DNA of 64,000 bases from Nanobdellota archaeon (GCA_042571645.1 JBHPFW010000006.1:4131-68130); one strand, 5' to 3'; positions 8,334 to 58,143 are shown, numbered from the stretch's first letter. Notes: generated by a model not told the origin, from the sequence alone. Made by a program: numbers and translations.

Positions 8334-8885
8334 ATGAGTAATCTAGGCAAAAGTAGTCTTAAAAGTAGTGATTTTGTTAAAGAGGGAAGTAAAACAAAAG
8401 ACATTGAAGGTGTTTTTGATCTTCTTCTGAATCTTATGAAAGAAAAGGGCATGACTATGCAAGAACTTATTGCAAAGTATGAGGGTTCTCCAAAAGAAAT
8501 TTTTGTGCCATTATCAATATTCTCAACAAAACTAAGTCCTTCAGAATCTTTAAGTGTATATCTAAAAGAAGAACAAGATCTATCATACAGCGAAATTGGA
8601 GAACTGCTGAACAGAAATGAAAGAAGCATATGGACAAACTTCCACAATGCCAGAAAAAAAGCAAAAGAGAGATTACCTTTAGACAGCGAAATTTCTGCAC
8701 CATTAAGTATATTCAAAACAAGACAGCTAAGTATCTTTGAGAGCTTAATACTTTATCTGCGTGATACTTTGAAATTAAAGAACAGCAAAATAGCTCATGC
8801 TCTAAACAAACACACAAGTGTAACATATACTGTCTATAACAGAGCAAAACAAAAACTCGATTCAAAAAATAAAAAAATAAAATGA
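8334..8885 (+). CDS. Tandem-duplicated HTH protein (sigma-70 region 4 / LuxR-like), putative regulator at the head of the plus-strand surface operon
   Basis: There are two internal repeats. The first is VPLSIFSTKLSPSESLSVYLKEEQDLSYSEIGELLNRNERSIWTNFHNARKKAKE (nt 8505-8672). The second is APLSIFKTRQLSIFESLILYLRDTLKLKNSKIAHALNKHTSVTYTVYNRAKQKL (nt 8697-8858). The stop codon overlaps the next ATG (ATGA at 8882-8885). A TATA-like ATATTTATAAATAAA lies about 20 nt upstream. Confidence 0.6.
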   Translation: MSNLGKSSLKSSDFVKEGSKTKDIEGVFDLLLNLMKEKGMTMQELIAKYEGSPKEIFVPLSIFSTKLSPSESLSVYLKEEQDLSYSEIGELLNRNERSIWTNFHNARKKAKERLPLDSEISAPLSIFKTRQLSIFESLILYLRDTLKLKNSKIAHALNKHTSVTYTVYNRAKQKLDSKNKKIK

Positions 8886-11800
8886 AAGACAAGATAATGG
8901 TATTGATAGTGTTTGCAATCTTAATAGTTTTTGGTATGCTATTATCTAATTTAGGAAAACTTGCAATGACAGGTTATGTTGTATTTGAGCCAGATACTAT
9001 CGATGAACATACCGAAACTAATGTTGTTAATAATTATTCTGAAGAAATAATTGAAGATTTAGTAACTGAAGAGCTAGTAACTGATTTAGTAATTGAGGAC
9101 CCAGAAGAGCTAAATGAATCAATACCAAATAATCCCATACTAATTAATGAAACAATAAATCAAAGCAATAATCAGAGTGAAGAAACAGATGATGAAGAAA
9201 TAGGTGAAGAGATAGATGAAGTAATAGATGAACTTGATAATTATCTAGATGATTCAATAGATGAGCAAATCTTAAATGAATCATTAGATAAATCAGATTC
9301 TGATACAAACGAATCAGATTCTGGTACAAATGTGCCAGATTCAAACCAATCAACAATACCAAATCAATCAACAATAAATGAATCAAATCAGGATATTCCT
9401 GAGGATACAGTATATGTAAATTACACAGAAATTGATGACAGTAAAATTGATGTTATTATAACACTTAAACCAGAAAAAACAGAAGTTGAAAAAGAAGTAA
9501 TAGAAACTTTTGAATTTGAAGCAACAAAAGAAATAGCTCCAGAAACCCTTGAGCCAAAAAAAGTGAGAAAATGGTTAATATTATCTGAAGAATTACCACC
9601 TACAGAAGCAACATTTGAGCAAAAAGAAAAAATCCAGAAAGAAGTGCAGGAAAAAGTCCTTAAAGAGACACAAGAAAATATCAAAGAAGCTCAATCTGAC
9701 TTAGCAAACTCTCTGGACTCAGATATAAAAGAAAATTCAATAGAAATAGAACACAATTATACTTCTATCGGCTTGGTGCATGCTAAAGTTACACCTGAAG
9801 AACTTGAAAAATTAAATAATAATCCTGAGATAGAAAATATAGAAAAAAGCAAGACTTACAGTATTGTGCTTGATGCCAGCATACCTTATATTAATGCAGA
9901 TAGCGTATGGGGTACAAAAGTTAATGGAATTAATATTACCGGCGCAGGAGAAACAATCTGCATAATTGATACAGGAATTGATTACAGACATGATTCTTTG
10001 GGCAATTGCACACAAGCAGAATTTTTAGCTGGAGACTGCACAAAAGTTTTGAGTGGTTATGATTATGTAAATAATGATCCGAACCCAATGGATGATCATA
10101 GTCACGGCACTCATTGTGCTGGCATTGCTTCTTCCACACACACAACCTATAGGGGAGTTGCATTTGATGCTAATCTTGTTGCACTAAAGGCTTGTAATAG
10201 CGGCGGTGGCTGCGGTGACTCAGACATACTTGCAGGAATAGATTGGTGCATAACTAATGCATCAATCTTCAATATATCAGTTATCAGCATGAGTTTGGGT
10301 GATGATTCTTTCCATAATAGTTATTGCAGTGGAAGTATATTCAATACACCTGTAAGAACTGCAGTGGAAAATGGCATAACAGTTGCAATAGCAGCAGGAA
10401 ATGTTCCTGCAGGAGCAACAGGTGTTGCAGAACCTGCATGTGTAGAGAATGCCACAGTAGTTGGTGGCCTGAGAGATAGTGATAATGCAGTATTCTACAA
10501 GAGAGGTGCTTTAATGGATTTATTTGCACCAGGCATAGGCATTTATGCTCCTGTTTTGAATGAGGGTTTTGGAACAAAGTCAGGAACTTCTATGGCAACA
10601 CCTCATGTTGCAGGAGCTATTGCTGTAATGCAGCAATACAACAAACTTATTAATAATGCATCATTGGATCCTTATAATATTGAAGACTTGTTTGAGGAAA
10701 CTGGTGTAATGGTTTATGATTCTGGTTTAGGTTATTCAAAGCCAAGATTAGACTTGCAAGCAGCTATCGAAAGTGTTTTGGTAATAAACGAATCAGATAA
10801 TTCAACAGAAAACACTGATGCCAAGATTAAGTTCTCAAACACCACAGCATTTACAAATATAACAAAATGTGTTAATATCAAGAGAAATGCTGTTTCTGTA
10901 AATGCTAAAAAGTGCCCCGAATTAAATAAATCAGCCACTTTAACATTCAAATCCCAGATTTACAAAACAAATCCAGTAATTTTAATGGATGGCCAGATAT
11001 GCCCTGCTGAGATTTGCAGCTTTGTTTCCTATTCACAAAATAATGCCATATTTACAGTAGGTCACTTCACCAATTATTCTACAACTACAAATTCAAGATT
11101 AGAAATATGGGATGAGAATGATGTTTTGGGAGGAAATCAAAATAAAACAACTGGAGAAATAATAAGATTTTATGCAAACTACACAAATAAAACAAGCAAT
11201 AACCCAATTAATAATAATTCTGAGAATGGCAATTGTAATATAACAATTAACAGTACCCAATATGTAATGAGCTTTAATTCATCAGGACAACAATATTGGT
11301 CATATAGTAATATATTCAGTTCTTCTGCTAATTATTCTTGGAATGTGAGTTGTAATGCAACTGGTTATGAGCCATTAAATGTTTCTGATAATATCGAAGT
11401 AATAACCAACACACCTCCAAATCAGACTAAGCCAATATTAACCTCAACATTTGGCACAAACAGATCAAATGAAAATCTTACTGTGTATAATCAATCCACA
11501 AATGATGTTAATAATCAGGTTGTTAGCAATATAATTAATTGGTATGTTGATGGAGTAATTAATAATCAGCTTAAGAATCTGACAAGAATTGATTCAACAA
11601 ACATTTCAAGAGGGGAAGGCTGGCAAGCGTGTGTCACACCAAATGATGGTGTAGAGAATGGTACTACAAATTGTAGCAACAATATAACTGTTTTGAATTC
11701 TCCAGCAACCCAATCAACACCAATTCTTAACTCAAGCAATGGAACTAATACTCCAAATGAGAATCTGAGTGTTTATAATAAATCAACTTATGATGCTGAT

Positions 11801-12652
11801 GGAGATTCTGTAGATAATATAATTGATTGGTATGTAAATAATGCAGTAAGGCAGGAGTTCAAGAACTTCACCACTATTAACTCTAGTAATACTTCTTCAG
11901 GCCAGGATTGGAAAGCCTGCATAATTCCTTATGATGGCTATGAAAATGGCACAAGATTATGCAGCAACACAATTGCAATTCCATCAGAAAATAACAATGG
12001 TGGAAGTTCTGGCGGTGGAGGCGGTGGTGGCAGCAAAGAAACCTGTTTTGATGGAAAGAGAAATCAAGGTGAAACAGGAATAGACTGTGGTGGGATTTGT
12101 GCAGCATGCCCAAGTTGTTTTGACGGCAAACAAAATTGTCATGATAATAAATGCGAAGAAGGTGTTGATTGTGGGGGGCCGTGCGCTGCTAATTGTGCTC
12201 CTGCTCCAAGATGTGATGATGGCATAATGAATGGTTATGAAACAGGAATAGATTGCGGTGGGTATTGTGGGGCTTGTGAAGCTGAGATAAAAACAGAGCA
12301 AAGCATTGCAAAACCTCCTATTGTAAAAGAGACAAAAAAAGAACTTCCTCTTGGATTAACAGCCCAATCCGCAGAAGAGAAAGAAAAGAAGGGGTTATTG
12401 GAAGAATTAGAGGACATCAATATTGTTGGAAGAGCATTCCTTGCCAAGCAAGCTAATATGATAATGATGATTGTTATCATAGCTATGATACTGATACTGT
12501 CTTTGTTGTTTAGACCTATTTCCTATAGAAAACCTAGAGCAGCACCACTAGAGCAAAAAGAATTGCCCAAATCAAACAAATCAAAACTACAAAATATTAC
12601 TGAAACAGATAAAACAATCAAAGAATTAGACACTAGACTAAAGAAATTATAA
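8882..12652 (+). CDS. Membrane-anchored subtilisin-like (S8) serine protease fused to adhesin-type modules
   Basis: 1256 aa. From N to C: TM/signal, acidic low-complexity region, I9-like propeptide, S8 domain, Ig-like modules, two uninterrupted ~95-aa W-x-AC-x-TP-x-DG modules, poly-Gly, three Cys-rich repeats and a C-terminal TM (MIMMIVIIAMILILSLLF). Confidence 0.9.
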   Translation: MKDKIMVLIVFAILIVFGMLLSNLGKLAMTGYVVFEPDTIDEHTETNVVNNYSEEIIEDLVTEELVTDLVIEDPEELNESIPNNPILINETINQSNNQSEETDDEEIGEEIDEVIDELDNYLDDSIDEQILNESLDKSDSDTNESDSGTNVPDSNQSTIPNQSTINESNQDIPEDTVYVNYTEIDDSKIDVIITLKPEKTEVEKEVIETFEFEATKEIAPETLEPKKVRKWLILSEELPPTEATFEQKEKIQKEVQEKVLKETQENIKEAQSDLANSLDSDIKENSIEIEHNYTSIGLVHAKVTPEELEKLNNNPEIENIEKSKTYSIVLDASIPYINADSVWGTKVNGINITGAGETICIIDTGIDYRHDSLGNCTQAEFLAGDCTKVLSGYDYVNNDPNPMDDHSHGTHCAGIASSTHTTYRGVAFDANLVALKACNSGGGCGDSDILAGIDWCITNASIFNISVISMSLGDDSFHNSYCSGSIFNTPVRTAVENGITVAIAAGNVPAGATGVAEPACVENATVVGGLRDSDNAVFYKRGALMDLFAPGIGIYAPVLNEGFGTKSGTSMATPHVAGAIAVMQQYNKLINNASLDPYNIEDLFEETGVMVYDSGLGYSKPRLDLQAAIESVLVINESDNSTENTDAKIKFSNTTAFTNITKCVNIKRNAVSVNAKKCPELNKSATLTFKSQIYKTNPVILMDGQICPAEICSFVSYSQNNAIFTVGHFTNYSTTTNSRLEIWDENDVLGGNQNKTTGEIIRFYANYTNKTSNNPINNNSENGNCNITINSTQYVMSFNSSGQQYWSYSNIFSSSANYSWNVSCNATGYEPLNVSDNIEVITNTPPNQTKPILTSTFGTNRSNENLTVYNQSTNDVNNQVVSNIINWYVDGVINNQLKNLTRIDSTNISRGEGWQACVTPNDGVENGTTNCSNNITVLNSPATQSTPILNSSNGTNTPNENLSVYNKSTYDADGDSVDNIIDWYVNNAVRQEFKNFTTINSSNTSSGQDWKACIIPYDGYENGTRLCSNTIAIPSENNNGGSSGGGGGGGSKETCFDGKRNQGETGIDCGGICAACPSCFDGKQNCHDNKCEEGVDCGGPCAANCAPAPRCDDGIMNGYETGIDCGGYCGACEAEIKTEQSIAKPPIVKETKKELPLGLTAQSAEEKEKKGLLEELEDINIVGRAFLAKQANMIMMIVIIAMILILSLLFRPISYRKPRAAPLEQKELPKSNKSKLQNITETDKTIKELDTRLKKL
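9857..10780 (+). other. Peptidase S8 catalytic domain with an intact Asp/His/Ser triad
   Basis: Asp lies in ICIIDTGID (codon at 9968-9970), His in HSHGTHCAG (10103-10105) and Ser in SGTSMATPHVAG (10589-10591). All three codons are in frame with 8882. Confidence 0.85.
11413..11975 (+). repeat. Two uninterrupted copies of the ~95-aa module that is split by LamG elsewhere
   Basis: Copy 1 is PPNQTKPILTSTFGTNRSNENLTVYNQSTND..NIINWYVDGV..GEGWQACVTPNDGVENGTTNCSNNITV. Copy 2 is PATQSTPILNSSNGTNTPNENLSVYNKSTYD..NIIDWYVNN..GQDWKACIIPYDGYENGTRLCSNTIAI. Confidence 0.7.
12045..12277 (+). repeat. Cys-rich stalk: 3 x C-x-DG-x2-N-x2-E-x-G-x-DCGG-x-C-x2-C
   Basis: The sequence is CFDGKRNQGETGIDCGGICAAC / CFDGKQNCHDNKCEEGVDCGGPCAANC / CDDGIMNGYETGIDCGGYCGAC. 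It is preceded by GGSSGGGGGGGS and followed by a TM anchor. Confidence 0.7.
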
Positions 12653-12676
12653 TGAGGAAATAACAATAATAAATAG

Positions 12677-15600
12677 ATGAAAGCAATGGAAGCCTATAAA
12701 ATAAGAGGATTATTAGTGTTGGCGATTTCAGTACTTATGGGTATAGTGCTTGCTAATCTGGGCAATCTTTCTATTACAGGTTATTCTACAGTAGAATTAA
12801 ACAATACGATTTATGTTTATTCAGATACTATTATGGATGAGGATTTCTATAACTCTGATTACTCTTATTACCATGTTATTATTGAGAAGGATAATGTAAA
12901 ATTAGATTGTAATGATCTTCCTTTGATTGGAAATGAAACTGGAATAGGGATTTATTCAAATAAAAACAATATAACATTAGAGAATTGTTTTGTTGTTAAT
13001 TATGAGTATGGCATTGTACTTACTGGTAATGATTCTAATCTTATTAACACCAGAGCAGAGAATAATTTATTTGTGGATATAATGTATATGGAAGTTGAGG
13101 AATTTGAAATGGAAAATGCTGTGGCAGACAATGCTTCTAATGAAACACTAACTGAATCAGAAGCTAATTTAACACAAGATCCATTAGCAGAACCAAATAT
13201 TACAGATCCAGTGTCAGAGAGTGAACCTACTCAAGAAAATATTTCTACATCTGGAATACAAGAAGATCCTCAACCTCCACAAGATCCAATTACAATATTA
13301 TCAGGTAATGCACCAACACATTCACAGCCAATATTAAACTCAACAAATGGCTTATTCCATTCATCTGAGAATTTAACAGTCTATAACCAATCAACAAATG
13401 ATGGCGAAGGAGATAATGTTACTAATTCAATCTTATGGCTCAGGAATAAAAGAAGTTTCCCTGCAACACATGTAGATATAAATTATGATAATGTTATATT
13501 TAGGACTCCATTTGAGAATTATACTGTAAGTACAGATACTTATAAGGATTATTCTGTAAGTGACAGTACTATTACAGTATCAAATACTGTATGGAATGCA
13601 ACTGGAGGTCATGATGGTTATGGGGCTTATAAATTTACAGGTACTACTGGTTATTTGAAAACTACTGCAGATATAGGTGAAGGAGAAGCCAGTCTTACTG
13701 TTTTGGTTTGGGTAAAACCATCTCCTTCTCCTGCGCACATTGGTGATTTTGTAACAAAAAGAAATGTATACTATACTTTGCAGAACATAAGTAATAATGT
13801 ATGGGTTTATTTATCTGGTCTTAGCTCTGCTTGGACTCGATCTTCCTCAACTTTAAGCACAACCAATTGGAATCATGTTGCGTGGACTAAATCTGGATCA
13901 ACATTAAGACTATACATAAACGGTCAAGAAGATAGTGTATCTCCAGTTACTTTAACTTCAAGTAATCCATTAGCAAGCGGTATTCTTCATCCCTTAACTA
14001 TCGGAAATGTCGTCCTGAATACTGGCGCTATTGATGCTGACAGAGGATTTGACGGTCATATCGATGATGTGATGATATTAGATGTGGCTTTATCTGCTGA
14101 TCAAATTAAAGCAATGTATGATAGAACAAGCAATATTATTCGTTCTGATGAGACTGAAGTTAGCGATACTTGGCAGGCATGCATCACTCCTAACGACGGT
14201 ACAAGTGATGGTGCTACTAATTGCAGTGATACAAAAACAATTCTTTTGAGCAATCCGCCAACCCATTCTCAGCCAATATTAAGTTCAACTTCAGGAAATA
14301 ATCTTTACTCAGATAACTTGACTGTTTATAATCAATCAACCATTGATATTAACGGAGATTCTGTCAGCAATATTATTAATTGGTATAGGAACGATACGTC
14401 TATAGCAGTATTGAATATGCCGTTTGATTCTGCTGATTCTGCAGGTTCTGGAAAAACAAAAGATTACAGCGGTTCTGGTAATAATGGAACTCTTGCAGGA
14501 CATACTGTCTGGACAAGTGACGGTTATCTAGGCGGGGCTTATTATTTTGATGGTACAAATGATTATATTGATTTTGGTAATGATCCTGATCTAAGTTTTG
14601 AGAGAACAGATCCATTTTCTATTTCTGCGTGGGTTAAAATAGATGATGTTTCTTCAGTAAGACTGATATTTTCAAAATTAGCTGGCCCTACAGCTTATCC
14701 AGGTTATCAGTTTTTTGTACACACAAACGGACAGATTTATTTTGATTTATTCCGTGATTCTTCAACAACTAAATACATCAGGGTTTATGAAACTAGCAAT
14801 GAAGGTGTAGCTGATGGTGGTTGGCATCAGGTTACTGCAACTTATGATGGTTCAAGCACTGCTGCTGGTGTTAAAATATATTTAGATGGCGATGCAGTGT
14901 CAACCACTGTTGGTCAGGATACACTAGATGGTTCAATGCTTAACTCTGTCAGTGCGTATATTGGAACTAGAAGCGACGGCAGCTATGATTACAAAGGATA
15001 TGTTGACGAGGTTAATGTGTTTAATAGGGAATTATCTCCTGAGCAAATCAATGCTTTATACAATAACAGAACAGACTTAATTGTTTCACAAGAAACAGAA
15101 GTTAGCGATATCTGGAAAGCCTGCATAACACCAAATGATGGCTTTGTTGATGGTGTAACTAATTGCAGTACTAGTCTGACTATTGTTTCAAACATACCCC
15201 CAACACATAATCAGCCAATATTGAATTCTACTCTGGGAACAAATTTAACAACAGAAAACCTTACAGTTTATAATCAATCTACCAGTGATTTAGAAGGAGA
15301 TGGGGTAAATAATTCAATTAGATGGTTAAGAAACAGCAGAAGTTATCCTGCTACTCCAGAAAGTGTTTCTTATACAAATATGGTACTTAATATGCCCTTT
15401 GAGAATTATACAGGTTTATCAGACAATTCCGCTGATCATTCATTATATGGTAATAATGGTACGGTTTATGGAAATCCAGTCTGGAATTCAACAGGAGGCC
15501 ATGATGGTTATGCAGCTTATGATTTAGACGGAACAGGAGACTATATTGAGATAGCTGATGATGCTTCGTTAGAATCAACACAAATATCTCTTGGTGCTTG

Positions 15601-32568: not shown

Positions 32569-32599
32569 TAACTTTATATAACTATGTTGAATACATCTG

Positions 32600-32746
32600 T
32601 TATTTTATATCTCTGCCTAGAATTTCTTTCCATGATCCTTCTTTTATAACTATATTATTCTTTTTAGGATCGACTATTGCGAACCTGTTTTCTCTGAGCT
32701 TTATTATATGATATTCCCCAGCAATCACTGCAATGATTTTTACCAT
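32600..32746 (-). CDS. Possible 48-aa small protein (below ORF-track cutoff)
   Basis: Hand translation gives MVKIIAVIAGEYHIIKLRENRFAIVDPKKNNIVIKEGSWKEILGRDIK. The sequence is not low complexity and no homology was recognised. It could be a chance ORF. Confidence 0.25.
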   Translation of the reverse strand: MVKIIAVIAGEYHIIKLRENRFAIVDPKKNNIVIKEGSWKEILGRDIK

Positions 32747-32791
32747 AAGGTTATTATTTGTCAGAACTGGTTAAATAACCTTACTGAGAAT

Positions 32792-32916: not shown

Positions 32917-32959
32917 TTCTGACGACTATATGCTATTTGGGGGGTGTCAAGTGGTATTT

Positions 32960-45389: not shown

Positions 45390-45457
45390 TTTCCAAAACA
45401 TTTAAAAATACCCCCTGGAAATTCTGTTCAGGTGATATATTGAAAGCATATAACAGA

Positions 45458-45571
45458 ATGCCTGCCAGAGACACATTGGAAGAGCAACCTAAAAAGCCTC
45501 ATAAGGATGACTTGCTTAGGGGGATAGTGTTTACTCTTATTATTCTTGCTGGTTTATTGGCTATTTTGTAA
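45458..45571 (+). CDS. Possible 37-aa tail-anchored micro-protein
   Basis: Hand translation gives MPARDTLEEQPKKPHKDDLLRGIVFTLIILAGLLAIL, a charged N-terminus followed by one TM. It overlaps the convergent THUMP gene 3' end by 11 nt. It could be a chance ORF. Confidence 0.25.
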   Translation: MPARDTLEEQPKKPHKDDLLRGIVFTLIILAGLLAIL

Positions 45572-49648: not shown

Positions 49649-49790
49649 TCTTACCTTTTTTGATATAGTATTCCAATAGGTTTGATAGCTTCATCATTCT
49701 TTCATCTGCTTCTTTCTGTAATTTTGCCAGTAGTTTCTTATCTATAGAAATTGAGACTTTAGACTTAGTAATTTGGCCTTTTTTGGTCAT
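49638..49790 (-). CDS. 50-aa ribbon-helix-helix (CopG/Arc/MetJ-like) DNA-binding protein; not in the ORF track
   Basis: Hand translation gives MTKKGQITKSKVSISIDKKLLAKLQKEADERMMKLSNLLEYYIKKGKNEK. This reads as a beta-strand (KVSISID) followed by two helices. The 3' end overlaps the 1043-aa gene start (49648) by 11 nt. Confidence 0.6.
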   Translation of the reverse strand: MTKKGQITKSKVSISIDKKLLAKLQKEADERMMKLSNLLEYYIKKGKNEK

Positions 49791-49815
49791 TTCCTACTTT
49801 TATTACTTTTCCTAC

Positions 49816-49878
49816 TTTATAAATGTTTTGCTTAGAATCAGCTAATATGGGCTTTATAGATTAGTTTCTATAGAAATT
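49816..49878 (-). promoter_or_regulatory. TATA box and palindromic box upstream of the RHH gene
   Basis: TTTATAAA is at 49816-49823, about 26-33 nt upstream of the ATG at 49790. The perfect palindrome TTTCTATAGAAA is at 49865-49876. A 12-mer TCTATAGAAATT is repeated at 49741-49752 (inside the RHH gene) and 49867-49878. Confidence 0.35.
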
Positions 49879-49901
49879 AAAAACATAAGAAATAAAAAAA
49901 T

Positions 49902-50939
49902 TTAATCCTGAGTAATAAAAATAGCCACTAATAAAGCCACAATAATTGCTATTAAAATAACTATTACTGCAATCAAACCAAAACTAACATCCCATTCCCA
50001 GTCTATTAAAGGAGGCTGATCTGTTGTGTTTGTTTCATTGTCTGTTGTAGTAGGAGGTGGTGTAGTAACTGGTGGTGGAGTTGGTGGTTTAGGTGGCTCG
50101 GTAGTTGTTTCATTTTCTTCAGGATCTGGTATATTAGGTCCAGGTACAGGTGGCAATGGCCCACCTTGAGAATTCTCAAGAACATCATATGTTAAAACAT
50201 TTGATGTTACATCATAATTATCCTTGTTTCTCAGAATTATTGTTCCATCATCTAGTTCATAACTATTTACAATAACAGTTATCTCTGTGTTTTGACCCAT
50301 TTTTAGAGGCGTTATTGTATAGCCAAACTTTTTTCTTTCTCCAGGTCCTAATTCATCAACATCTCCTTCATTATTTGGAGAGAAATCAGTATCTAAACCA
50401 TAACTAACAAATGCATCAATATTCTTAGCAGTTCTTTCTCCTGTGTTTTTTATAATAAAACCCAGGTCATATTCTTTCTCTAAAAACAATTCGTCACCTA
50501 TGTCCTTTAATGTGATTTCAAGTTTTGGATAAGATGTTGTTGTAGGGGGTTCTGACATATTAATTTCTGAACTACTCTCACACTGGCTTTCAGCATTGGA
50601 TAAATCTATTGTAACTTCATAATTAGCTTCTTCTGTACATTCAAGTTCCCAATAATATTGATTTTTTGTATTTGACAAAGTAACAGTTTCAGAATTAGCT
50701 GTAGTTAATCCATCTGGAAGAACTATTGTTGCATTTCCATCTGCATACTGCCCCCAGCAGGTTTTTGCAGGGAAAGCACATGTTAAGGGTTGATATTCTA
50801 AGAAATACATAATCAATTCGTCACAAGTAGCATCTGGAGTAGTTGTATAAAAATCAACATTCTCACATGCTTCTGCCAAAACAATATTAATACTAATTAT
50901 AAACAAAACTAAGAATAAAACATATTTTTCTATTTTCAT
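49902..50939 (-). CDS. 345-aa surface protein: signal, CWG-motif N-domain, CARDB-like domain, Pro/Thr stalk and C-terminal TM
   Basis: Key elements are KTCWGQYADGNATIVLP (paralogous to the 1043-aa N-domain) and FIIKNTGERTAKNIDAFV. The stalk is PPKPPTPPPVTTPPPTTT. The TM is FGLIAVIVILIAIIVALLVAIFI. Confidence 0.75.
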   Translation of the reverse strand: MKIEKYVLFLVLFIISINIVLAEACENVDFYTTTPDATCDELIMYFLEYQPLTCAFPAKTCWGQYADGNATIVLPDGLTTANSETVTLSNTKNQYYWELECTEEANYEVTIDLSNAESQCESSSEINMSEPPTTTSYPKLEITLKDIGDELFLEKEYDLGFIIKNTGERTAKNIDAFVSYGLDTDFSPNNEGDVDELGPGERKKFGYTITPLKMGQNTEITVIVNSYELDDGTIILRNKDNYDVTSNVLTYDVLENSQGGPLPPVPGPNIPDPEENETTTEPPKPPTPPPVTTPPPTTTDNETNTTDQPPLIDWEWDVSFGLIAVIVILIAIIVALLVAIFITQD

Positions 50940-50949
50940 TTTCCAACCC

Positions 50950-53900
50950 TCATGATATTGTTACTGTTCTTTGTACTGTTAATTGATCACCAGGATGAGC
51001 TCCTGCTGTGACGGTGATATTATATTTTCCAGGTGTATCTATCTGATTTTCCCATGATTGAAGATTTGTACTTGTAGCTAGTGCATTATAAAAGCATTCT
51101 GAGTTTGTGCCGCAATCTTCTCCATTATTGTTCCAGGTACTGATAATATTATAAGTACCATTTATACTTATGGTTATTGGCATTCTGTATAAAAATGCAG
51201 TTGTAGGATTATTGATCTGTGGAATAACATAAAATGATGTGCTTACTGGTTCGTTTGCATTAGGATAATCAACAGGATCATACCATGTGAAAATAATACT
51301 ATCAACAATACTTCTTATCCAGATATTAGTATCACTACCTGTATTACTCGCATTCATGTCTCCAGGTGAATCATCATAGGCAGAGCTTGAATACATTCCA
51401 ACTAATGGATATATTGTAACAGTAGGGGTATAATTCATATAAACAGTTTTTGTTTCTCCAATTGAAAGATTAATATATTTGATATGTTTAGTATCGCCAT
51501 TTTCCCTAATTCTTACATCCAAATCTGTCTCATTAACATTTCCATAATTTGTAACATTGCCCCATACCAATACAGTATCATACTTGTATATTGTGTGGCT
51601 ATCATTGCCTTCCCATTCATAGTGGAAGGAATCTACACCAACATCATAGAAGCCTGTTTCTGCACCTGGTGAATTAGAGATTGGACTAGTATTTCCCCAG
51701 TTGTCTGTTGCATTGATAGCAGCATACCACAGAACTTCAGAAGCACCTAATCCTGTAATTGTGCAGGTTTCATTTGAGCCGCCCCAATCTGGATTAAGAT
51801 TGCTGCATAATGACCATTGTGCATTATCCCAGTCAGTTTGTGTTAATATAGGTGTTTGTGCATATCTTATTTCATAAGCAGTTGCTTTACCTACTTGGTC
51901 ATTATCTCCAGGAGCTGTCCAGAACAAATCAATACTTCCTTGACTACGTCCTGTTTTAACAACTAAGTTAGTTACCTGACCAGGACCTTCATTGTCAATT
52001 TCTATAGTTCCTTCAGCCACTTCTGTTTCTCTTCCTGCATCATCAAAACCAACAGCAAAAAAGGTTGTGCCATAAAAAGTATTATTTATTTTTGGCGAAT
52101 TCCAAGTATAAGAAAAGTAATTGCCGGGTGTATTATTTTGTCCTATGAATTCATAGTAAACATCAGTTTCATTTCCATTTAAGAACCAAAACTCCATATA
52201 TACAACATCATCACTAGTTGTAGAGGCATTCAAAACATATATTCCTTTGATTTCAGTGCCGAAAGTTGGATTAACCAAACTAACTTGAGGATTTAAAGTA
52301 TCAACCTTAAATGGATAAACATAATCAATAACTCCATCACAGTCAACTGTTAAATTATAATCATCATCCAAACCTGAGACATTTATTGATTTGTACCATT
52401 CCAAATTATCAACAGTATCTAAAGTACCATTTAGTGCTGTTCCAATAAGGTCATATGAGCAACTGGCTGCAGTATCATTGGTTGTTGCATTTATCCATAC
52501 AGAATCATTCAAGTAGAAAGTATCTGCTATTGGTGAAGTAATCTCTAAGCTGAGTGAGGAATTAGACGTTTCTTGAGGTATATGATGTTGTTCTGTACTC
52601 CAGTTACTAGGTTTGAGTTGTGCATCAATTGTTTGTATTGACCAGTAATATTCTTGGTCTGGGATATTTAATGAAAAATTCTTTAATTGCCTTACATTTC
52701 CAAATGCTTCTTCACCGGAAAGTTTTCCTGAAAAAATATCCTGTGAATCTGGACTTGTTCCAATTCTAAGATTGTATGTCAATAAGGTAGTAAGTGTTTC
52801 ATTATCAAAACCATCATTCCAACTTAAGGTTAACTTTCCATCGGAATATGTTGAATTAAATGATATTGGCGGAATAGGCATCGTATTTTGTATTGTAAAA
52901 TGATTTTCAAACATCTTGAATTCTTGTCTTACTGATTGTTTGTATTGAGAAACAAGAATGTCTTGATCATAATCTCCATCAAAATCATGGATTGAAACTG
53001 CTGAGGTAGAAAAAGTGTTTGGCAGCACTTGCAGGAAATTAAAATTTCCTAAGCCGTCGTTCAGATAGACATAATCATTTCCACTTTCAGATCCTGTGAC
53101 TATGTCTAAATAACCGTCGCTATTGAGATCTGATGTTTCTATATCCCTGGATATTCCATTATCAATAGATAAAGTTGAAGATAAAGTAAATATTCCTGTT
53201 CCGTCATTTTCAAATATCTTAACTGCACCTATAGTATCATAAATAATTGCCACATCTATGAATCCATCATTATTAAAGTCTCCTGATGCTACTCCCTCAG
53301 ACGTATCTCCTGAGTCAGTAAAATTATAAAATACTGTGAAGTGACCAGTTCCATCATTTTTCAAAAGATTTCTAGATTTAATGGTTTCATAATTGCTGAC
53401 GACAACATCTAAATCCCCATCATTATCCGCATCAAACGCATTAACAAATATAACATTTAAGGGTAACTCTTCATGGAATTCAAAATAACCTGATCCATTA
53501 TTTTTGTAAACAACTCCTTTATGATAATTTGCGCCTCCCGCAATAATATCTAAATCCCCATCATTGTCAAGATCTCTTAATGCAGGTTCATATAATGTCT
53601 TTCCAGCCCCAAAATTTTGGTAAACTGAGAAACCCCCCCCATCATTTTTGTATATGAAATGAGGATTTCCATTTCCATTTGCGTTAAAAAGATCCAGATC
53701 CCCATCATTATCAACATCACCAAATTTAACAGCGTTGGTGGTGTTTGGATCAGCATTATTAAGGCTTTGTTTCAGGGTAAAATAACCTGTTCCGTCATTT
53801 TCATATATCGCTGATCCTGTAGTTCCCCAATCGTATCCTCCGACTACAAAATCGTAGTCGTTATCTCCATCAACATCACCAATGTCCATTGAATTGGAAA

Positions 53901-56900
53901 AGGGACCATTTAGGCCTATGAATGATTTTGTTTGAGCTACTGTGAATTCAGGGAATTCAACTTGTGTTGTCGTAGTATTTTGATTATTCACTCCATCAAT
54001 TATCCAATATTTGATTTCATATGTTCCTGGAACATCATAAGTTATAGTTATTGTTTCAGTAGTGCCGGGGAAAACATAATCCTGATCATTATCAGTTATG
54101 CTATCATTATCGGAGTCAAAAGATGTATCTTTATCTATTATTATAGTTAGGAATTCACGGTCATATCCAGAATAGTTTATTTCTATCTCTCTGATAGTGC
54201 CATTAACTGTATTATCTGTTGCAGATATGTTTATTAATATTGTCTCATTCTCCGTGATTGTAACATTTTTAGGCACTATTAAGACAGGTGTTGCTGTATC
54301 ATTCACTATAAAGAAATTACCGATCTTATGAATTTTTCCCCATTGTTGGTTGTAGATATGGATGTCATATTTGCCTTCAGGGTATTCACAGGGTACACTA
54401 AATTCAAAATTCTTAAAATATTTGGTATGGTCATTTGGTATTACTAATGTTTCAGACGGATCTGAATCATTTCCGCTGTAAATTATGTTTCCTTGATTTC
54501 CTTGTGTATGATTCTCAACTACAAAAGTTATGTTGACTGTTGAGGCACCAGAATTTTTCCCAAAAGCTGTAAAATAAACTATGTCTCCGCAGGAATATTT
54601 ATTGTTGTTTTCGTGCTTGCCAGAATATATTATGTGCCCTTCCGAATTGAATGTTCCCATATATGTTCCGTCTTCATCTATAAATGCATCATGGCCTGTT
54701 TCAGATACTTTTATTGGATTTATGTTAAAGTCTTTTTCATCAGAATGCTGATAGATTAGGTGGTATGAACCATCATCAACGAACACAATATAATTTCCGT
54801 TTACATCTGTAACTGCATCCGGAACTTCTTTAGGTAGAAGGTTAGCATAATCTCCTGAATCAGATACGGGATCATAGACTGAAGAAGGATATACTGAAAT
54901 ATTTACATTCATTATAGGATTTCCAGTGTCTGTATCATAAACAGTTCCAGTTATGGAAGTTGTATAAGTCTTTGTTTCATTAATTACATCAGAATCATTT
55001 ACATTATTATCGATATCTTTCGTATGTACATTAATTGTGTATGTAGTATTAGGCAATAATCCAACTGCATGGTAGAATTCTTCTGTTGTGTTAATTATAT
55101 TCACTCCATCAAGATATATAATATGTTCTGAAAAATCAGTATCGTTTGGTTTAGTCCAAGACCAATTTATTGAAGAATTTGTTTTAGAAATCACATTAAG
55201 ATCAGTAATCTGAGCAGGAGGGTCATCTGAAACTATTGTTGTGTTATCTACTAATATTAATATTTCATTTGAACATAATTCAGCTCCATCTTCTTTGCCG
55301 TCATTTGGAATTAAACAAGCTTTCCATCTGTCTCCAACAGAAGTTTCCTGTTCGAGAATAACATCAGGAGGGTTTTTATTATACAAATAATTAATCTCGT
55401 CAGCTGATAAAGCTCTGTTAAAGATCATTGGATCGTCAATTGTGCCATTAGAAAAACAACTAAGAGTTGCAAAAGAACCAATATAAAGATCATTAATAAC
55501 ACCATCTCCGAGCATACCTGTCCAGTCAGCTATTTGTGAAATTGCAAGAACTCCATCAACATATATTTTCATTTCTCCATTAACATAAGTTGCAGCAACA
55601 TGGTGGAAGCCATTATTGTTTAAATCTACAACTGCTCTTAGGTCAAAATAATCCTTTGATGCATTCCAGACCCTGAACAATAGTGCATTATTGAGGGGGT
55701 TATACGCAAAAAGATAAGAGACTTTATTGCTAAATATTCTATGAGACGCTTCATTCCAAACACTTCCTGTTTTTCCTCCGAAATCCACCCAAGCAGATAA
55801 AGTTAATTCATCAACATTGGTCAGTTCACTGCTTCCAGGAACAATTATGCTATCATCCAGTCCATCAAATACATAAGCTCCGAAACCATCATGACCTGCA
55901 TCACTAACCCAATTTGCACCAAGAACTATTCCTTCATGATTATAGTCTGAATAATCTGAAGTAATTGAATCTGTGCTTCCACCTTCAAAAGGCATATTAA
56001 GCAACAATATTGGAGTGTCATTTATATACCAGTTGATTATGTTTTTAACAGGATCTCCTTCATCATCATATGTTGATTGATTATAAACCTGTAAACTTTC
56101 TGTTGTTTGATTTTTTCCAAGAGCTGATTCCAGAAGAGGTGCACTATGTTGAGGCGGAGTATTTGGTATTGGAATACTCTCAAGTATTGTAATTGTATTT
56201 GAGCATTTTTCCTGACCATCATCTTTACCATCATTTGGAGTTACACAAGCCACCCACTGATCATTTGTGTCTGTTTCAGCTGAAGAGAGTTTATCAAGAT
56301 TTGATTGATATAACAAATTAATTTGGTCTTGACTCAAAGCTCTGCTATAAATCATTACCTCATCAATAGTTCCGTTCAAAAAACCATTAACACCATAATA
56401 AGATCCCAAATAAACATCACGAACCTGATTATCTCCAACCGGCCCTGACCAATCTATTCTTTGAGATTTAACACGTAACCCATCAACATAAATATTCATC
56501 ATACCATTAGAATAAGTAGCTGCAATATGATGAAAACCATCATCAATTAAATTTACTTTGTATCTTGTATCGAATAATTTACTTTCATTCAAAATCCTAA
56601 ACCCGATAACCTGTGCTCCTGAATTATACCAAAGCAGATAAGAGCCAGTATTACTTATAATTTGCTGATTCAATTCCTGCCAAGTAGATCCTGTCTTGTC
56701 ACCAAATGAAACCCACGCAGATAATGTCAACTCATCAAAACCACTCAACTCACTATTACCAGGAATAATAATTGAATCATCCACACCATCAAAAGCATAA
56801 GCACCTTTTCCATCATAACCATAACTTTCATTCCAAACAGCACCCACAGCAAGGTTGATAGAATTATTATAGCTTGAATAATCCCGAGTTGAAACACCAC

Positions 56901-58143
56901 TCCCACCTTCAAAAGGCATATTCAAAACAGCAATAGAACTTCCATTGACATACCAATCAATTATGTTTTTTACAGGATCACTATCATTATCATTAGTGTT
57001 CTGAGCTGAAACAGTCAGCTCATCATCTGTTTTATTCTGGCCTGAAGAGGAACTTAATATTGGTTCATCATGAGTAGGAACATTATTTGCAGGAGAACTA
57101 CTGCTTAATATTGTAATTTCACTCGAGCATTTCTCTAAACCCTCTTCTATGCTATCAGTTGGTATTATACATGACTTCCAAACATCATTCTCCATAGTTT
57201 CCTGACTAACAAGTACATCTTCTTTATTATTGTACAAACTCGAGATCTGAGCAGAACTCAAAGCACGATTATAAATCTTAAGATCGCTGATACTTCCATT
57301 CAAATAAGACTTAGAGCCAGCATTTGCACCTATCAATAAAGGTTTCATATTATCTCTACCAATTACGCCCTGCCAACCAGTATACCTACTTTTCATATTC
57401 TGTCCATTAACATACAAATTCATCCAGCCATCCTTGTATGTAGCTGCAATATGGACATAACCAATATTTGAAATATTTGATCTAAGCCTTAAATCAAAAT
57501 GTTCACTCTCATTATTAATCCTAAACAAAATATTACCATATTGTTCATAAGTCAGAATAAAATAACCACCAATGCTTACAACCTGCTGATTCAATTCCTG
57601 CCAGGTTGTTCCATTTTTGCTCCTAAAACTAACCCAACTAGAAATAGTAATCTCATCCAAATTATTAAACTCATTCCCTGCATTAACCTCAATAAAATCA
57701 TCAACACCATCAAAAGTATAAGATCCAAAACCATCATGGCCAGAACTCTCATTCCAAACGGCACCATTCACAATTCCATTATTATTATGGCTTGAATAAT
57801 CTTTAGTATTTATTACTTCAGTGCCATTGTTAGCTTCAAAAGGCATATTAAGAAGTGTAATTGAGTTAGTGTCCTTATACCAATTAATTATGTTCTTGAC
57901 TGGATCTCCTTCAGGATCATTAGTAGTTTGGTTAGTTACTATTATATTCTCATCTGTAGTATTTGTGTCTAATTCAGAATCTAATATTGGATCATCATGA
58001 GTTGGCGGTTGATTTGGGCTATCAGCATATACTGAACTGGTTGCCAATATAAGTATAAGAATTAAGAAGATTGTTTTTTTGAGCTGCAACTTTTGCAGTG
58101 CAGAGCATAATTTAGTATTTAAGATATTATCCACCATTTTCAT
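50950..58143 (-). CDS. Giant (~2397-aa) surface protein: 3 nested LamG modules, Fn3, CarboxypepD_reg-like, FG-GAP beta-propeller, Fn3-like and CARDB-like domains
   Basis: The track ORF starts at a TTG (58152); ATGs occur at 58143 and 58137. The signal is TIFLILILILATSSVYA. The modules are identical in plan to those of the 6296-aa protein (PTHDDPILDS..ENIIVTNQTTNDPEGDPVKNIINWYKD...LamG...SQETMENDVWKSCIIPTDS). Confidence 0.9.
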   Translation of the reverse strand: MKMVDNILNTKLCSALQKLQLKKTIFLILILILATSSVYADSPNQPPTHDDPILDSELDTNTTDENIIVTNQTTNDPEGDPVKNIINWYKDTNSITLLNMPFEANNGTEVINTKDYSSHNNNGIVNGAVWNESSGHDGFGSYTFDGVDDFIEVNAGNEFNNLDEITISSWVSFRSKNGTTWQELNQQVVSIGGYFILTYEQYGNILFRINNESEHFDLRLRSNISNIGYVHIAATYKDGWMNLYVNGQNMKSRYTGWQGVIGRDNMKPLLIGANAGSKSYLNGSISDLKIYNRALSSAQISSLYNNKEDVLVSQETMENDVWKSCIIPTDSIEEGLEKCSSEITILSSSSPANNVPTHDEPILSSSSGQNKTDDELTVSAQNTNDNDSDPVKNIIDWYVNGSSIAVLNMPFEGGSGVSTRDYSSYNNSINLAVGAVWNESYGYDGKGAYAFDGVDDSIIIPGNSELSGFDELTLSAWVSFGDKTGSTWQELNQQIISNTGSYLLWYNSGAQVIGFRILNESKLFDTRYKVNLIDDGFHHIAATYSNGMMNIYVDGLRVKSQRIDWSGPVGDNQVRDVYLGSYYGVNGFLNGTIDEVMIYSRALSQDQINLLYQSNLDKLSSAETDTNDQWVACVTPNDGKDDGQEKCSNTITILESIPIPNTPPQHSAPLLESALGKNQTTESLQVYNQSTYDDEGDPVKNIINWYINDTPILLLNMPFEGGSTDSITSDYSDYNHEGIVLGANWVSDAGHDGFGAYVFDGLDDSIIVPGSSELTNVDELTLSAWVDFGGKTGSVWNEASHRIFSNKVSYLFAYNPLNNALLFRVWNASKDYFDLRAVVDLNNNGFHHVAATYVNGEMKIYVDGVLAISQIADWTGMLGDGVINDLYIGSFATLSCFSNGTIDDPMIFNRALSADEINYLYNKNPPDVILEQETSVGDRWKACLIPNDGKEDGAELCSNEILILVDNTTIVSDDPPAQITDLNVISKTNSSINWSWTKPNDTDFSEHIIYLDGVNIINTTEEFYHAVGLLPNTTYTINVHTKDIDNNVNDSDVINETKTYTTSITGTVYDTDTGNPIMNVNISVYPSSVYDPVSDSGDYANLLPKEVPDAVTDVNGNYIVFVDDGSYHLIYQHSDEKDFNINPIKVSETGHDAFIDEDGTYMGTFNSEGHIIYSGKHENNNKYSCGDIVYFTAFGKNSGASTVNITFVVENHTQGNQGNIIYSGNDSDPSETLVIPNDHTKYFKNFEFSVPCEYPEGKYDIHIYNQQWGKIHKIGNFFIVNDTATPVLIVPKNVTITENETILINISATDNTVNGTIREIEINYSGYDREFLTIIIDKDTSFDSDNDSITDNDQDYVFPGTTETITITYDVPGTYEIKYWIIDGVNNQNTTTTQVEFPEFTVAQTKSFIGLNGPFSNSMDIGDVDGDNDYDFVVGGYDWGTTGSAIYENDGTGYFTLKQSLNNADPNTTNAVKFGDVDNDGDLDLFNANGNGNPHFIYKNDGGGFSVYQNFGAGKTLYEPALRDLDNDGDLDIIAGGANYHKGVVYKNNGSGYFEFHEELPLNVIFVNAFDADNDGDLDVVVSNYETIKSRNLLKNDGTGHFTVFYNFTDSGDTSEGVASGDFNNDGFIDVAIIYDTIGAVKIFENDGTGIFTLSSTLSIDNGISRDIETSDLNSDGYLDIVTGSESGNDYVYLNDGLGNFNFLQVLPNTFSTSAVSIHDFDGDYDQDILVSQYKQSVRQEFKMFENHFTIQNTMPIPPISFNSTYSDGKLTLSWNDGFDNETLTTLLTYNLRIGTSPDSQDIFSGKLSGEEAFGNVRQLKNFSLNIPDQEYYWSIQTIDAQLKPSNWSTEQHHIPQETSNSSLSLEITSPIADTFYLNDSVWINATTNDTAASCSYDLIGTALNGTLDTVDNLEWYKSINVSGLDDDYNLTVDCDGVIDYVYPFKVDTLNPQVSLVNPTFGTEIKGIYVLNASTTSDDVVYMEFWFLNGNETDVYYEFIGQNNTPGNYFSYTWNSPKINNTFYGTTFFAVGFDDAGRETEVAEGTIEIDNEGPGQVTNLVVKTGRSQGSIDLFWTAPGDNDQVGKATAYEIRYAQTPILTQTDWDNAQWSLCSNLNPDWGGSNETCTITGLGASEVLWYAAINATDNWGNTSPISNSPGAETGFYDVGVDSFHYEWEGNDSHTIYKYDTVLVWGNVTNYGNVNETDLDVRIRENGDTKHIKYINLSIGETKTVYMNYTPTVTIYPLVGMYSSSAYDDSPGDMNASNTGSDTNIWIRSIVDSIIFTWYDPVDYPNANEPVSTSFYVIPQINNPTTAFLYRMPITISINGTYNIISTWNNNGEDCGTNSECFYNALATSTNLQSWENQIDTPGKYNITVTAGAHPGDQLTVQRTVTIS
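52900..53935 (-). other. Seven FG-GAP/VCBS repeats (integrin-alpha-like beta-propeller)
   Basis: The repeats are GDVDGDNDYDFVVGG, FGDVDNDGDLDLF, RDLDNDGDLDIIAGG, FDADNDGDLDVVVSN, GDFNNDGFIDVAI, SDLNSDGYLDIVTG and HDFDGDYDQDILVS. Each is followed by Y.N.G.G.F. Confidence 0.75.
55262..58020 (-). repeat. Three LamG-split modules in the 2400-aa protein
   Basis: The C-halves are SQETMENDVWKSCIIPTDS, SAETDTNDQWVACVTPNDG and EQETSVGDRWKACLIPNDG. The LamG cores contain FHHIAATY..G.M.IYVDG. Confidence 0.75.

Follow-up and report, generated by a model that had tools for sequence, protein, structure and literature searches.

In cultivated nanohaloarchaea, strain-specific surface proteins with LamG and PKD domains are encoded partly in operons, take up 55-64 kb (5.85-6.15% of the genome) and have been read as a means of host recognition (PMC10266531). 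'Organism-specific lectin-like proteins' with LamG/ConA domains have been described as a common nanohaloarchaeal feature (PMC7443923), and large extracellular enzymes have been noted in Woesearchaeota and Pacearchaeota (PMC8204110). Here, we analyze a cluster of giant surface-protein genes in a stretch of 64,000 nucleotides (nt; hereafter the window, whose coordinates are used throughout) from a Nanobdellota archaeon (GCA_042571645.1 JBHPFW010000006.1:4131-68130). We take this cluster, in a DPANN genome of Woesearchaeota type, to be chromosomal and composed of four closely packed transcription units; it would encode much of the exposed surface proteome, namely lectin-type giants and two proteases, would have expanded in place within a conserved scaffold of other genes and would act in binding a partner, its unit 1 being headed by the gene of a tandem helix-turn-helix (HTH) protein, HTH183; this reading seems to us rather probable, if well short of certain. 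A first-pass annotation of the same DNA had known of no described system with this composition, which was an overstatement: LamG/PKD host-attachment operons have been described in nanohaloarchaea (PMC10266531, PMC7443923), and thus the kind of cluster is already known. What is new, to judge from sequence comparisons, is the place of the head gene in a sizeable family of DNA-binding proteins linked to surface-protein genes by coupling or fusion; in the body of literature searched, no paper connected sigma-4-like HTH proteins with DPANN surface proteins, whether coupled or fused.

The locus shares with the published DPANN host-attachment clusters a DPANN genome, a grouping of genes for secreted or anchored multi-LamG/PKD proteins and lineage specificity; in the published examples too, the attachment role is unproven. 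Like Ca. Nanohalococcus occultus and like Ca. Nanohalovita (PMC10266531, PMC7443923), the organism is a small-genome DPANN archaeon with operon-organized giants, for which N-glycosylation and host recognition are predicted. Compared by description, it differs from those nanohaloarchaea in belonging to a low-GC, non-halophilic lineage of Woesearchaeota type; trimeric-autotransporter, MSCRAMM and pyocin-knob domains are not found here, whereas the S8 and M64-like peptidases, the FG-GAP propeller and the DNA-binding genes at unit heads are not part of the nanohaloarchaeal set. SPEARE of Ca. Nanohaloarchaeum antarcticus (Hamm et al. 2019, as discussed in PMC10266531) is likewise a giant (>5000 amino acids, aa) anchored DPANN surface protein with a proposed role in attachment, and was originally claimed to include a serine-protease part. 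According to the same discussion (PMC10266531), however, proteins of the SPEARE type have a VirB4/TraG-like ATPase domain in the cytoplasm, and their genes neighbour one for an AAA+ ATPase, whereas the protease here is a separate S8 gene. Pfam scans found no ATPase domain in the cluster proteins or their neighbours, and therefore this is not a SPEARE-type system. The lytic-transglycosylase proteins of Woesearchaeota and Pacearchaeota come from the same lineage group, are large and extracellular and have been read as tools for partner attachment or envelope degradation (PMC8204110); unlike them, the proteins of this cluster have no SLT/murein-transglycosylase domain that could be found, their enzymatic parts being peptidases. 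Outside the archaea, Giant1-5 of Apilactobacillus kunkeei (PMC12863079) are consecutive genes for extracellular proteins of 3000-8000 aa that fill ~6% of a small symbiont genome; they are bacterial, with unrelated domains, and the likeness is an analogy only.

Giant Surface Proteins

The open reading frame (ORF) map contains the eight large proteins announced by the first-pass annotation (1256, 6296, 3367, 345, 439, 1043, 345 and 2400 aa) at the positions where it had placed them. Two of them are giants with LamG modules, the 6296-aa surface protein (12677-31567, + strand) and the 2400-aa secreted protein (50950-58152, - strand), both characterized by Pfam and hydropathy. Laminin_G_3 (PF13385) scores 409 and 450 bits in the two halves of the former and 211 bits in the latter. 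A hidden Markov model (HMM) built from the window's own modules counts 11, two of them carrying insertions, for the 6296-aa protein and 3 for the 2400-aa protein, and the earlier total of 14 is thereby confirmed by Pfam and by this HMM. The 2400-aa protein also has fn3 above the cut-off, FG-GAP_3 at 123.8 bits in six stretches at about aa 1625-1860, and no C-terminal anchor. Of the other binding domains that had been listed, the FG-GAP propeller, the beta-helix and CARDB (twice) score above their cut-offs, as does fn3, whereas PKD stays below its cut-off, like CarboxypepD_reg and RHH_1.

The 6296-aa protein consists of LamG modules, a central Beta_helix domain (71 bits), a stalk, a first C-terminal transmembrane (TM) segment, an 80-aa cytoplasmic stretch, a second copy of the signal-anchor, a third TM segment and a tail. 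In the second signal-anchor, RTKGLLMLMILIIAVLIISNIGAFSIIGYSTTEIN aligns with KIRGLLVLAISVLMGIVLANLGNLSITGYSTVELN of the N-terminus with a score of 86, against 28 +/- 5 for shuffled sequences. A search of the PDB with the central 1267 aa gave no match. The end of the gene (30860-31567, aa 6061-6296), with its charged 80-aa stretch after the first C-terminal TM segment, its signal-anchor repeat and its third TM segment, has the appearance of an in-frame fusion to the 5' end of what was once the next gene, or else of a missed frameshift.

The set had been described as signal-bearing and usually TM-anchored at the C-terminus. By hydropathy, the first half of this description applies throughout, a signal-like hydrophobic segment lying at the N-terminus of all eight large proteins; the second is true of five, namely the 1256-, 6296- and 1043-aa proteins and the two 345-aa proteins (345a and 345b), but not of the 3367-, 439- and 2400-aa proteins. 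The 1256- and 6296-aa proteins contain 41-43 N-X-S/T sequons per 1000 aa, compared with 0-9.5 in the six tabulated proteins without a signal-like segment, and the cluster proteins are probably exported and N-glycosylated. Domain content, hydropathy and sequons together bear out the claim that exported, probably glycosylated, lectin-type giants are concentrated here with two envelope-tethered proteases.

Two Proteases and the Question of Feeding

The 1256-aa protein (8882-12652, + strand; ORF map, Pfam and hydropathy) is a membrane-anchored subtilase. It matches Peptidase_S8 (PF00082) with 133.6 bits against a cut-off of 21.8 and Inhibitor_I9 with 22.9 against 21.2, and the motifs IIDTGID, HGTHCAG, AAGN and GTSMATPH follow each other in the order of the Asp, the His, the oxyanion Asn and the Ser, so that the triad is intact. 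A signal-anchor is followed by the I9 propeptide, the S8 domain, stalk modules that are common to the 6296-aa protein, a C-terminal TM segment and a cytoplasmic tail of 46 aa. The S-layer of Staphylothermus marinus, tetrabrachion, said to have been studied by Peters et al. in 1995 and Mayr et al. in 1996, reportedly carries a bound subtilisin protease, STABLE. Both cases combine an archaeal surface stalk glycoprotein with an S8-family protease held away from the membrane; unlike the S8 protein here, which has its own stalk and TM segment, STABLE is said to sit non-covalently on a coiled-coil stalk, and the likeness is one of arrangement.

The second protease candidate lies at the C-terminus of the 3367-aa secreted protein (32930-43033, + strand; the ATG at 32960 is the likely true start), which contains 118 Cys and nine tandem 115-aa repeats and has no C-terminal anchor. 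CARDB scores above the Pfam cut-off, a CarboxypepD_reg-like match falls below it, and a DNRLRE domain (NCBIfam) lies near the N-terminus. At aa 3276 there is a signature of the type HExxH followed by GLxDEY, HEFSHSIGGLRDEY, which aligns with HEFGHSFGGLADEY of the M64-like PDB peptidases 4df9 and 3p1v, and the label 'M64-like' appears reasonable on this ground. A single-sequence AlphaFold2 (AF2) model of the domain has a predicted local distance difference test (pLDDT) score of 36, a PDB sequence search with the whole protein gave no match, and no relatives of its C-terminal 677 aa were found in a metagenome scan. The earlier statement that two surface-tethered proteases are present is supported, the S8 enzyme having 134 bits and its triad and the M64-like one a Pfam match below the cut-off and a signature that agrees with 4df9 and 3p1v. 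Two smaller genes accompany it in unit 2: 345a (43036-44073, + strand; ORF map and hydropathy) has a signal, a C-terminal TM segment and a weak CarboxypepD_reg-like match, and the 439-aa protein (44070-45389, + strand; ORF map and hydropathy), whose signal resembles a lipobox (ISGC), matches no family and lacks a C-terminal anchor.

The closest relatives of the S8 protein share at most 37% identity with it and lie amid unrelated housekeeping genes. Anchored S8 proteases of 1100-1300 aa are very common, with 444 matches over Woesearchaeota, Pacearchaeota, Altiarchaeota and Aenigmarchaeota, scattered among housekeeping genes, as might be expected if the cluster were general envelope or feeding equipment: an S-layer-like or glycocalyx coat, with S8 and M64-like enzymes that scavenge amino acids for an auxotrophic small-genome cell. 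LamG/ConA-like and beta-helix folds occur in glycan-degrading enzymes as well, the C-terminal anchoring of five of the eight proteins resembles that of archaeal envelope glycoproteins, and units of the cluster are shared with a sugar kinase. Yet Pfam and PDB searches returned neither an S-layer lattice family nor a glycoside-hydrolase or lyase catalytic family, and divergence and mosaicism as extreme as here typify interaction or antigenic surfaces more than they do structural coats. We consider such equipment unlikely, though an idea to be taken seriously, and the two roles are not mutually exclusive. In the partner-contact reading that we prefer, the lectin-type giants, which also have Ig-like spacers, would be held by N-terminal signal-anchors and/or C-terminal TM helices, with the two proteases on the same kind of stalk, and the proteins would bind glycans and proteins on another cell or substrate and proteolyse there, which is the role generally proposed in DPANN episymbionts. 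It is from the domain content that we infer this host-contact function.

The Head Gene and Its Family

HTH183 (183 aa; 8334-8885, + strand; ORF map) overlaps the gene of the 1256-aa protease by 4 nt. It matches Pfam Sigma70_r4_2 (34.7 bits) and arose by duplication of a single HTH unit within the protein. AF2 gives a confident model (pLDDT 86.6), in which each half superposes on region 4 of extracytoplasmic function (ECF) sigma factors, with a root-mean-square deviation of 0.8 Å over 47 residues for 3vep and a template modelling score of 0.79 for 6jhe; the full-length protein superposes poorly on sigma/anti-sigma complexes (template modelling scores 0.25-0.3). The NCBI name of the 183-aa protein is 'RNA polymerase sigma factor'. 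Family and fold searches gave only region-4-like matches and no sigma region 2, and all NCBIfam sigma models are far below their cut-offs (TIGR02937, 23.4 against 42.9). A bacterial-type sigma factor was accordingly rejected, given the absence of region 2, the low scores and the archaeal origin, and the NCBI annotation is wrong; the misannotation probably spreads across the family. To our knowledge, archaea have no bacterial RNA polymerase. The arrangement resembles bacterial ECF sigma/anti-sigma pairs and one-component regulators such as ToxR and CadC, in that a gene for a region-4 fold is translationally coupled to that of a single-pass membrane protein with a large extracytoplasmic part, and in that the DNA-binding module is tethered to the membrane in relatives of HTH183. 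It differs from all of these because HTH183 lacks region 2 and is tandem-duplicated, and because the fused form lies C-terminally, after the TM segment.

The family is large: a profile search gave 2,248 representative clusters, 2,065 of them at E <= 1e-10, and the nearest non-self relative of HTH183 is 53% identical. Its gene context was surveyed in 58 loci of Woesearchaeota genomes (L numbers below; P numbers denote proteins), obtained by a genome scan with an alignment of close HTH relatives and including 54 stand-alone copies. Of the 54, 44 overlap the start codon of the next gene, by 4-17 nt, whereas only 82 of 366 same-strand neighbour pairs (22%) in the same loci overlap. The overlapped partners have a TM-like segment within their first 200 aa in 41 of 44 cases, range in size from 64 to >3,330 aa and include LamG proteins (L041, L060, L025) and FG-GAP proteins (L056, L065); no S8 catalytic domain was found in HTH partners of the related loci. 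In six of the 58 loci, the HTH module itself forms the C-terminus of a giant ORF that runs without interruption for up to >3,592 codons, and about 13 of the top 150 library matches are such fusions, of 1307-5919 aa. They begin with a cytoplasmic coiled-coil N-terminus and a TM segment, continue with a huge extracellular part (e.g., LamG, beta-helix/NosD) and end with a short hydrophobic stretch containing G[AS]W[TI]I[RK]I, a polybasic run and one or two tandem-HTH modules. These fusions are Rosetta-stone evidence that the HTH protein works with surface proteins. Across Woesearchaeota the family is, as far as gene context tells, dedicated to surface-protein genes, and the proposal that small DNA-binding proteins are coupled to such genes is upheld, family-wide for the HTH type and in one further case for the pair of a ribbon-helix-helix (RHH) gene and the 1043-aa gene considered below.

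Fusions were seen in L028, L031, L037, L043, L044 and L045 and in P0187, P0195, P0200, P0205, P0209 and others. Although their conserved segment G[AS]W[TI]I[RK]I-hydrophobic-RRKRKKK has the look of a sorting signal at the C-terminus, DNA-binding modules of 150-350 aa come after it. Single-HTH 'half' versions (60-90 aa) lie directly 5' of giant genes in L050, L053-L058 and L060-L065; in L056 a 91-aa single-HTH gene precedes a 3131-aa gene, and in L050 single-HTH genes form arrays of three. The partners in L002, L004 and L006 have in common a conserved module made up of a cytoplasmic coiled coil, a TM segment, P-x-ITG-[FY]-AV and a beta-rich domain (NLxxNESGxYxWxxxxxGxIQSIKASGxxxGNGTVKIYIE), and several partners of this type end in a cytoplasmic tail resembling SHOCT-like 'ISxESYxK' motifs. 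A profile search found the coiled-coil/TM module of these partners in none of the window proteins; homology of the C-terminal part of the 6296-aa protein to the module, which had been considered, gained no support from that search.

A more speculative proposal, which we think rather improbable, is a device for signalling surface contact, confined to DPANN archaea of Woesearchaeota type, that would have the tandem sigma-4-like HTH as its output in the cytoplasm. Some genomes tether the HTH module covalently behind a short TM segment, on the cytoplasmic tail of LamG/beta-helix giants; others, including that of the window, have it as a separate protein, which would be made in fixed ratio to the adjacent surface protein. 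Extracellular engagement or proteolytic processing would then release or activate the tethered or separate module, which would act on TACATA..TAAGTA operators. If this were true, the device would be an archaeal functional analogue of ECF sigma/anti-sigma systems or of Notch-type regulated release, and the S8 protease and the 6296-aa adhesin would be linked to their own expression.

Promoters and Candidate Operators

The promoter/operator region of unit 1 (8040-8333, + strand) contains duplicated 48-nt promoter-like units, with a TATA-like box at 8301-8308 and with A[AT]TAAGTA boxes in four places (8048, 8069, 8124 and 8313). All four intergenic copies of A[AT]TAAGTA in the window fall at 8048-8320, in the HTH183 promoter, and the three copies of the 10-mer AAATTAAGTA in the window all lie 5' of HTH183 as well (3 of 100 shuffles reach three). 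In other genomes, 8-mers of a motif close to TACATAyATAATAAGTA are strongly enriched 5' of stand-alone HTH homologue genes; TACATAAT is found in 12 of 31 such upstream regions, against 0.25 expected. The motif follows the TATA box and precedes the ATG, and in many cases recurs farther upstream. The simplest reading is autoregulation of unit 1, and HTH183 most likely regulates its own gene through the A[AT]TAAGTA boxes as candidate operators. The gene of HTH183, at the head of unit 1, is translationally coupled to the S8 gene.

Two long gaps in the cluster had been said to carry TATA boxes and repeat or palindromic boxes, and TATA-like boxes, repeat boxes and a palindrome are indeed there. The first, 5' of the 3367-aa gene, spans 32569-32929, or reaches 32959 if the ATG at 32960 is the true start. 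Its promoter region for unit 2 (32785-32929, + strand) holds a TATA-like box, TTTATATA, at 32909-32916 and three TTGGGATAA boxes (32792, 32809, 32885), which have no further copy in the window. The second, the promoter of the RHH unit (49791-49901, - strand), combines two AAAGTAGGAA boxes (49791, 49809) with the 12-nt palindrome TTAGTTTCTATAGAAATTAA and a TATA-like box (49817-49824). Whole-window counts of TTGGGATAA and AAAGTAGGAA are not significant alone (8 and 38 of 100 shuffles, respectively), only their clustering in promoters being notable. The 2400-aa and SPFH genes are separated by a divergent promoter region (58153-58362, - strand) in which TATA-containing boxes are duplicated.

AAGTAG[GA]AA occurs four times in the window, and its three intergenic copies (8316, 49791, 49809) all lie between the TATA box and the ATG of HTH183 or of the RHH gene; it may be a shared initiator/leader element or a shared operator of the two.

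The RHH50 Pair

On the minus strand, RHH50, a 50-aa RHH-like protein (49638-49790) with weak Pfam RHH_1/DUF6364 matches, precedes the 1043-aa surface protein (46517-49648; ORF map, Pfam and hydropathy). The two genes overlap by 11 nt, and RHH50 would play the same head role for the 1043-aa gene as HTH183 does in unit 1. The 1043-aa protein has a signal, an N-domain common to its 345-aa paralogue, a weak PKD match (PKD_4, below threshold) and Cys-rich linkers, followed on the C-terminal side by two membrane-proximal domains, a TM segment and a cytoplasmic tail of 140 aa. The paralogue, 345b (49902-50939, - strand; ORF map, Pfam and hydropathy), has a signal, a CARDB domain, a Pro/Thr-rich stalk and a C-terminal TM segment.

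Only three non-self homologues of the 1043-aa protein were found, the best at 32-34% identity. One of them, P0183 (L066), is preceded by a 58-aa RHH-patterned gene overlapping it by 14 nt, a second instance of the RHH/1043-aa pair; another, P0184, is preceded by a 187-aa gene that also overlaps by 14 nt and has no Pfam match. In L065, a protein of 1479 aa that is HTH-coupled has its membrane-proximal part in common with the 1043-aa protein. From the P0183/RHH and L065/HTH cases it follows that the rule of a small DNA-binding gene overlapping a surface-protein gene holds, while the type of DNA-binding protein is interchangeable. A scan with the alignment of the 1043-aa family gave only matches to the Cys-rich linkers, and none of those loci had a member of the HTH family.

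A 329-aa Cys-rich protein (14 Cys) encoded farther right, at 62899-63888 (- strand), has no Pfam match and no signal-like segment; its CWG..DG motif is reminiscent of the N-domains of the 1043- and 345-aa proteins, and a AAAGTAGGCA box lies upstream at 63918-63927.

Probable Transcription Units

In the plus-strand run, spacings are -4, 24, 14, 361, 2 and -4 nt, in the minus-strand run 10, 111, -11 and 2 nt, and the two runs converge over a gap of 171 nt. The sequence confirms the reported 4-nt ATGA overlaps (8882, 44070) and shows gaps of 24, 14, 2, 2 and 10 nt. TATA-like boxes stand at proper distance only 5' of the HTH183, 3367-aa, RHH50 and (farther off) 2400-aa genes. The cluster is thus probably made of four transcription units, of which only two are headed by DNA-binding proteins and two end in housekeeping genes. 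Unit 1 probably comprises HTH183, the S8 gene, the 6296-aa gene and a housekeeping gene for a PfkB-family sugar kinase (328 aa, family match; 31582-32568, + strand), which begins 14 nt past the 6296-aa gene; unit 2 probably comprises the 3367-, 345- and 439-aa genes, unit 3 the 2400- and 345-aa genes, and unit 4 RHH50, the 1043-aa gene and a housekeeping gene for a UPF0020/RMKL-type methyltransferase (317 aa, family match; 45561-46514, - strand), 2 nt past the 1043-aa gene. The picture of two convergent, regulator-headed operon blocks is therefore kept for the convergence and revised for the rest, since four units, two with a regulator at the head, fit better. HTH183 does head the plus-strand block, as had been claimed, but the head of the minus-strand block is the 2400-aa gene, with no regulator, and RHH50 heads an internal unit only. 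The statement that nearly every gene between the housekeeping flanks is of the surface type is right as to the flanks, with the reservation that PfkB and the methyltransferase are embedded inside. With two housekeeping genes embedded, tight spacing is to be regarded as a trait of a compact genome and is no proof of a dedicated operon.

Two small ORFs without a family match occupy long gaps: one of 48 aa at 32603-32749 (- strand), divergent from the 3367-aa gene, and one of 43 aa at 45440-45571 (+ strand), with a C-terminal hydrophobic segment. NCBI accession numbering hints that both may be annotated there.

Origin and Probable Expansion in Place

Proteins identical to those of the window are found at NCBI under 'Nanoarchaeota archaeon' (MFC1691005.1, MFC1691006.1, MFC1691015.1), and the nearest relatives are in metagenome-assembled genomes (MAGs) of Woesearchaeota; the organism is a DPANN archaeon, and the earlier reading of the sequence is supported to this extent. 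Identity to Woesearchaeota MAGs is 55-59% for topoisomerase I (TopoI) and 52-57% for PfkB, whereas the best relative of S8 is at 37%, that of the 1043-aa protein at 32-34%, and none was found for the C-terminal 677 aa of the 3367-aa protein; by these values the surface proteins are diverging faster than the housekeeping proteins.

TopoI adjoins an HTH homologue in nine loci, and PfkB, NurA, TopoI and HTH occur together in four, plus L004/L005; PfkB orthologues lie next to NurA/TopoI/HTH in L004 and L011-L015. In these scaffold loci, HTH is followed by small membrane proteins (187-226 aa) and not by giants. As the TopoI-NurA-HTH-PfkB scaffold is conserved without giants elsewhere, the giants are lineage-specific insertions or expansions. 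Within the cluster, paralogy is mosaic: the C-terminal half of the S8 protein is 45% identical to the stalk of the 6296-aa protein over 362 aa, the 2400- and 6296-aa proteins are 33-34% identical over ~1000 aa, and the 1043-aa and second 345-aa proteins share an N-domain. The genes would thus be lineage-specific mosaic paralogues expanded in place inside the scaffold. The order HTH/S8/LamG recurs in 0 of the 58 related loci; together with the housekeeping surroundings of the S8 relatives and the missing relative for the C-terminus of the 3367-aa protein, this speaks against a conserved, dedicated apparatus.

With 50 kb of lineage-specific genes without close relatives in public data, the cluster might also be taken for a mobile genomic island, acquired horizontally between housekeeping genes. 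GC content, however, is 0.29-0.37 throughout and equal to that of the flanks, and family, tRNA and repeat scans of the window found no tRNA, integrase, transposase or flanking direct repeat, so that a mobile island is rejected; related genomes have conserved the neighbourhood to which HTH and the embedded PfkB belong, and paralogy within the cluster points to local expansion. Such an island is very improbable. A diversity-generating retroelement was considered too and rejected, no reverse transcriptase being present in the window.

That the long ORFs are assembly artefacts, i.e., chimeras or collapsed repeats, is scarcely credible to us. The genes are highly repetitive at the protein level, they come from a MAG and the end of the 6296-aa ORF resembles the 5' end of another gene fused in frame, but the repeats within the DNA reach only 60-82% identity and no more than 300 nt in length, too divergent for mis-assembly, so that collapse is unlikely; the frames stay open over 7-19 kb, and comparable giant ORFs with the same modules exist in many independent assemblies.

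Weighing the Partner-Contact Reading

Several points weigh against the reading of the cluster as a set of partner-binding proteins in regulator-headed units. Adhesion, host specificity and protease targets are deduced from domain families that are also found in non-symbiotic contexts. The signal and TM calls come from Kyte-Doolittle hydropathy only, and the Pfam match to M64 (PF09471) reaches 18.4 bits where 26 are needed, covering profile positions 3-167 of 302. RHH50 is below thresholds for both RHH_1 (16.4 against 20.5 bits) and DUF6364 (19.7 against 27.3), its sequence being compatible with a beta-alpha-alpha pattern. The partner of HTH183 in the window, S8, has no N-terminal cytoplasmic module of the kind typical of partners elsewhere, and the count of the operator motif is inflated by kinship among some loci (L011-L013). 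Co-transcription, finally, is deduced from spacing, in genomes where 22% of neighbouring genes overlap anyway and housekeeping genes share units.

Other Features of the Window

The cluster lies between housekeeping genes, with RIO kinase, archaeal DnaG, topoisomerase I, MgtC and NurA on the left and SPFH, S6e, MscS, prefoldin beta and L37ae on the right; small RpoP- and Pcc1-like ORFs, judged by eye from the sequence, lie between prefoldin and L37ae. At the left edge there is a small 72-aa winged-HTH-like ORF at 119-337 (+ strand; MKTLSERENKVIEHLL...).

Directly 3' of the NurA stop codon, a 175-nt element (7788-7962) with 15-nt terminal inverted repeats (TAAGTTCGCCAGCGC / GCCCTGGCGAACTTA) folds far better than shuffled sequences on both strands (z = -7.1 and -6.8). 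It matches neither Rfam nor a tRNA, and may represent a structured RNA, a terminator/insulator or a relic like a miniature inverted-repeat transposable element (MITE). Between the RIO kinase and DnaG genes, ~1 kb (1252-2267) is without an ORF of at least 40 aa, which is unusual in a compact genome, and has sub-threshold Rfam matches only (sR21-like C/D box at 1397-1463, 23 bits against 45). The tRNA and Rfam scans of the window, and of 7700-8340 and 1200-2300, gave nothing above threshold.

Biological Significance

For studying how DPANN archaea recognize and hold partner cells, there is no cultivated model among the Woesearchaeota. The present locus adds an example of a known pattern, in which a small genome spends ~50 kb on giant lectin-like surface proteins. 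Recognition of the HTH family corrects a systematic misannotation in databases, where archaeal HTH proteins appear as 'RNA polymerase sigma factor'. With its ~2,200 clusters, its coupling or fusion to surface genes and its operator-like motif, this family would offer a testable handle on how the surface repertoire is regulated.

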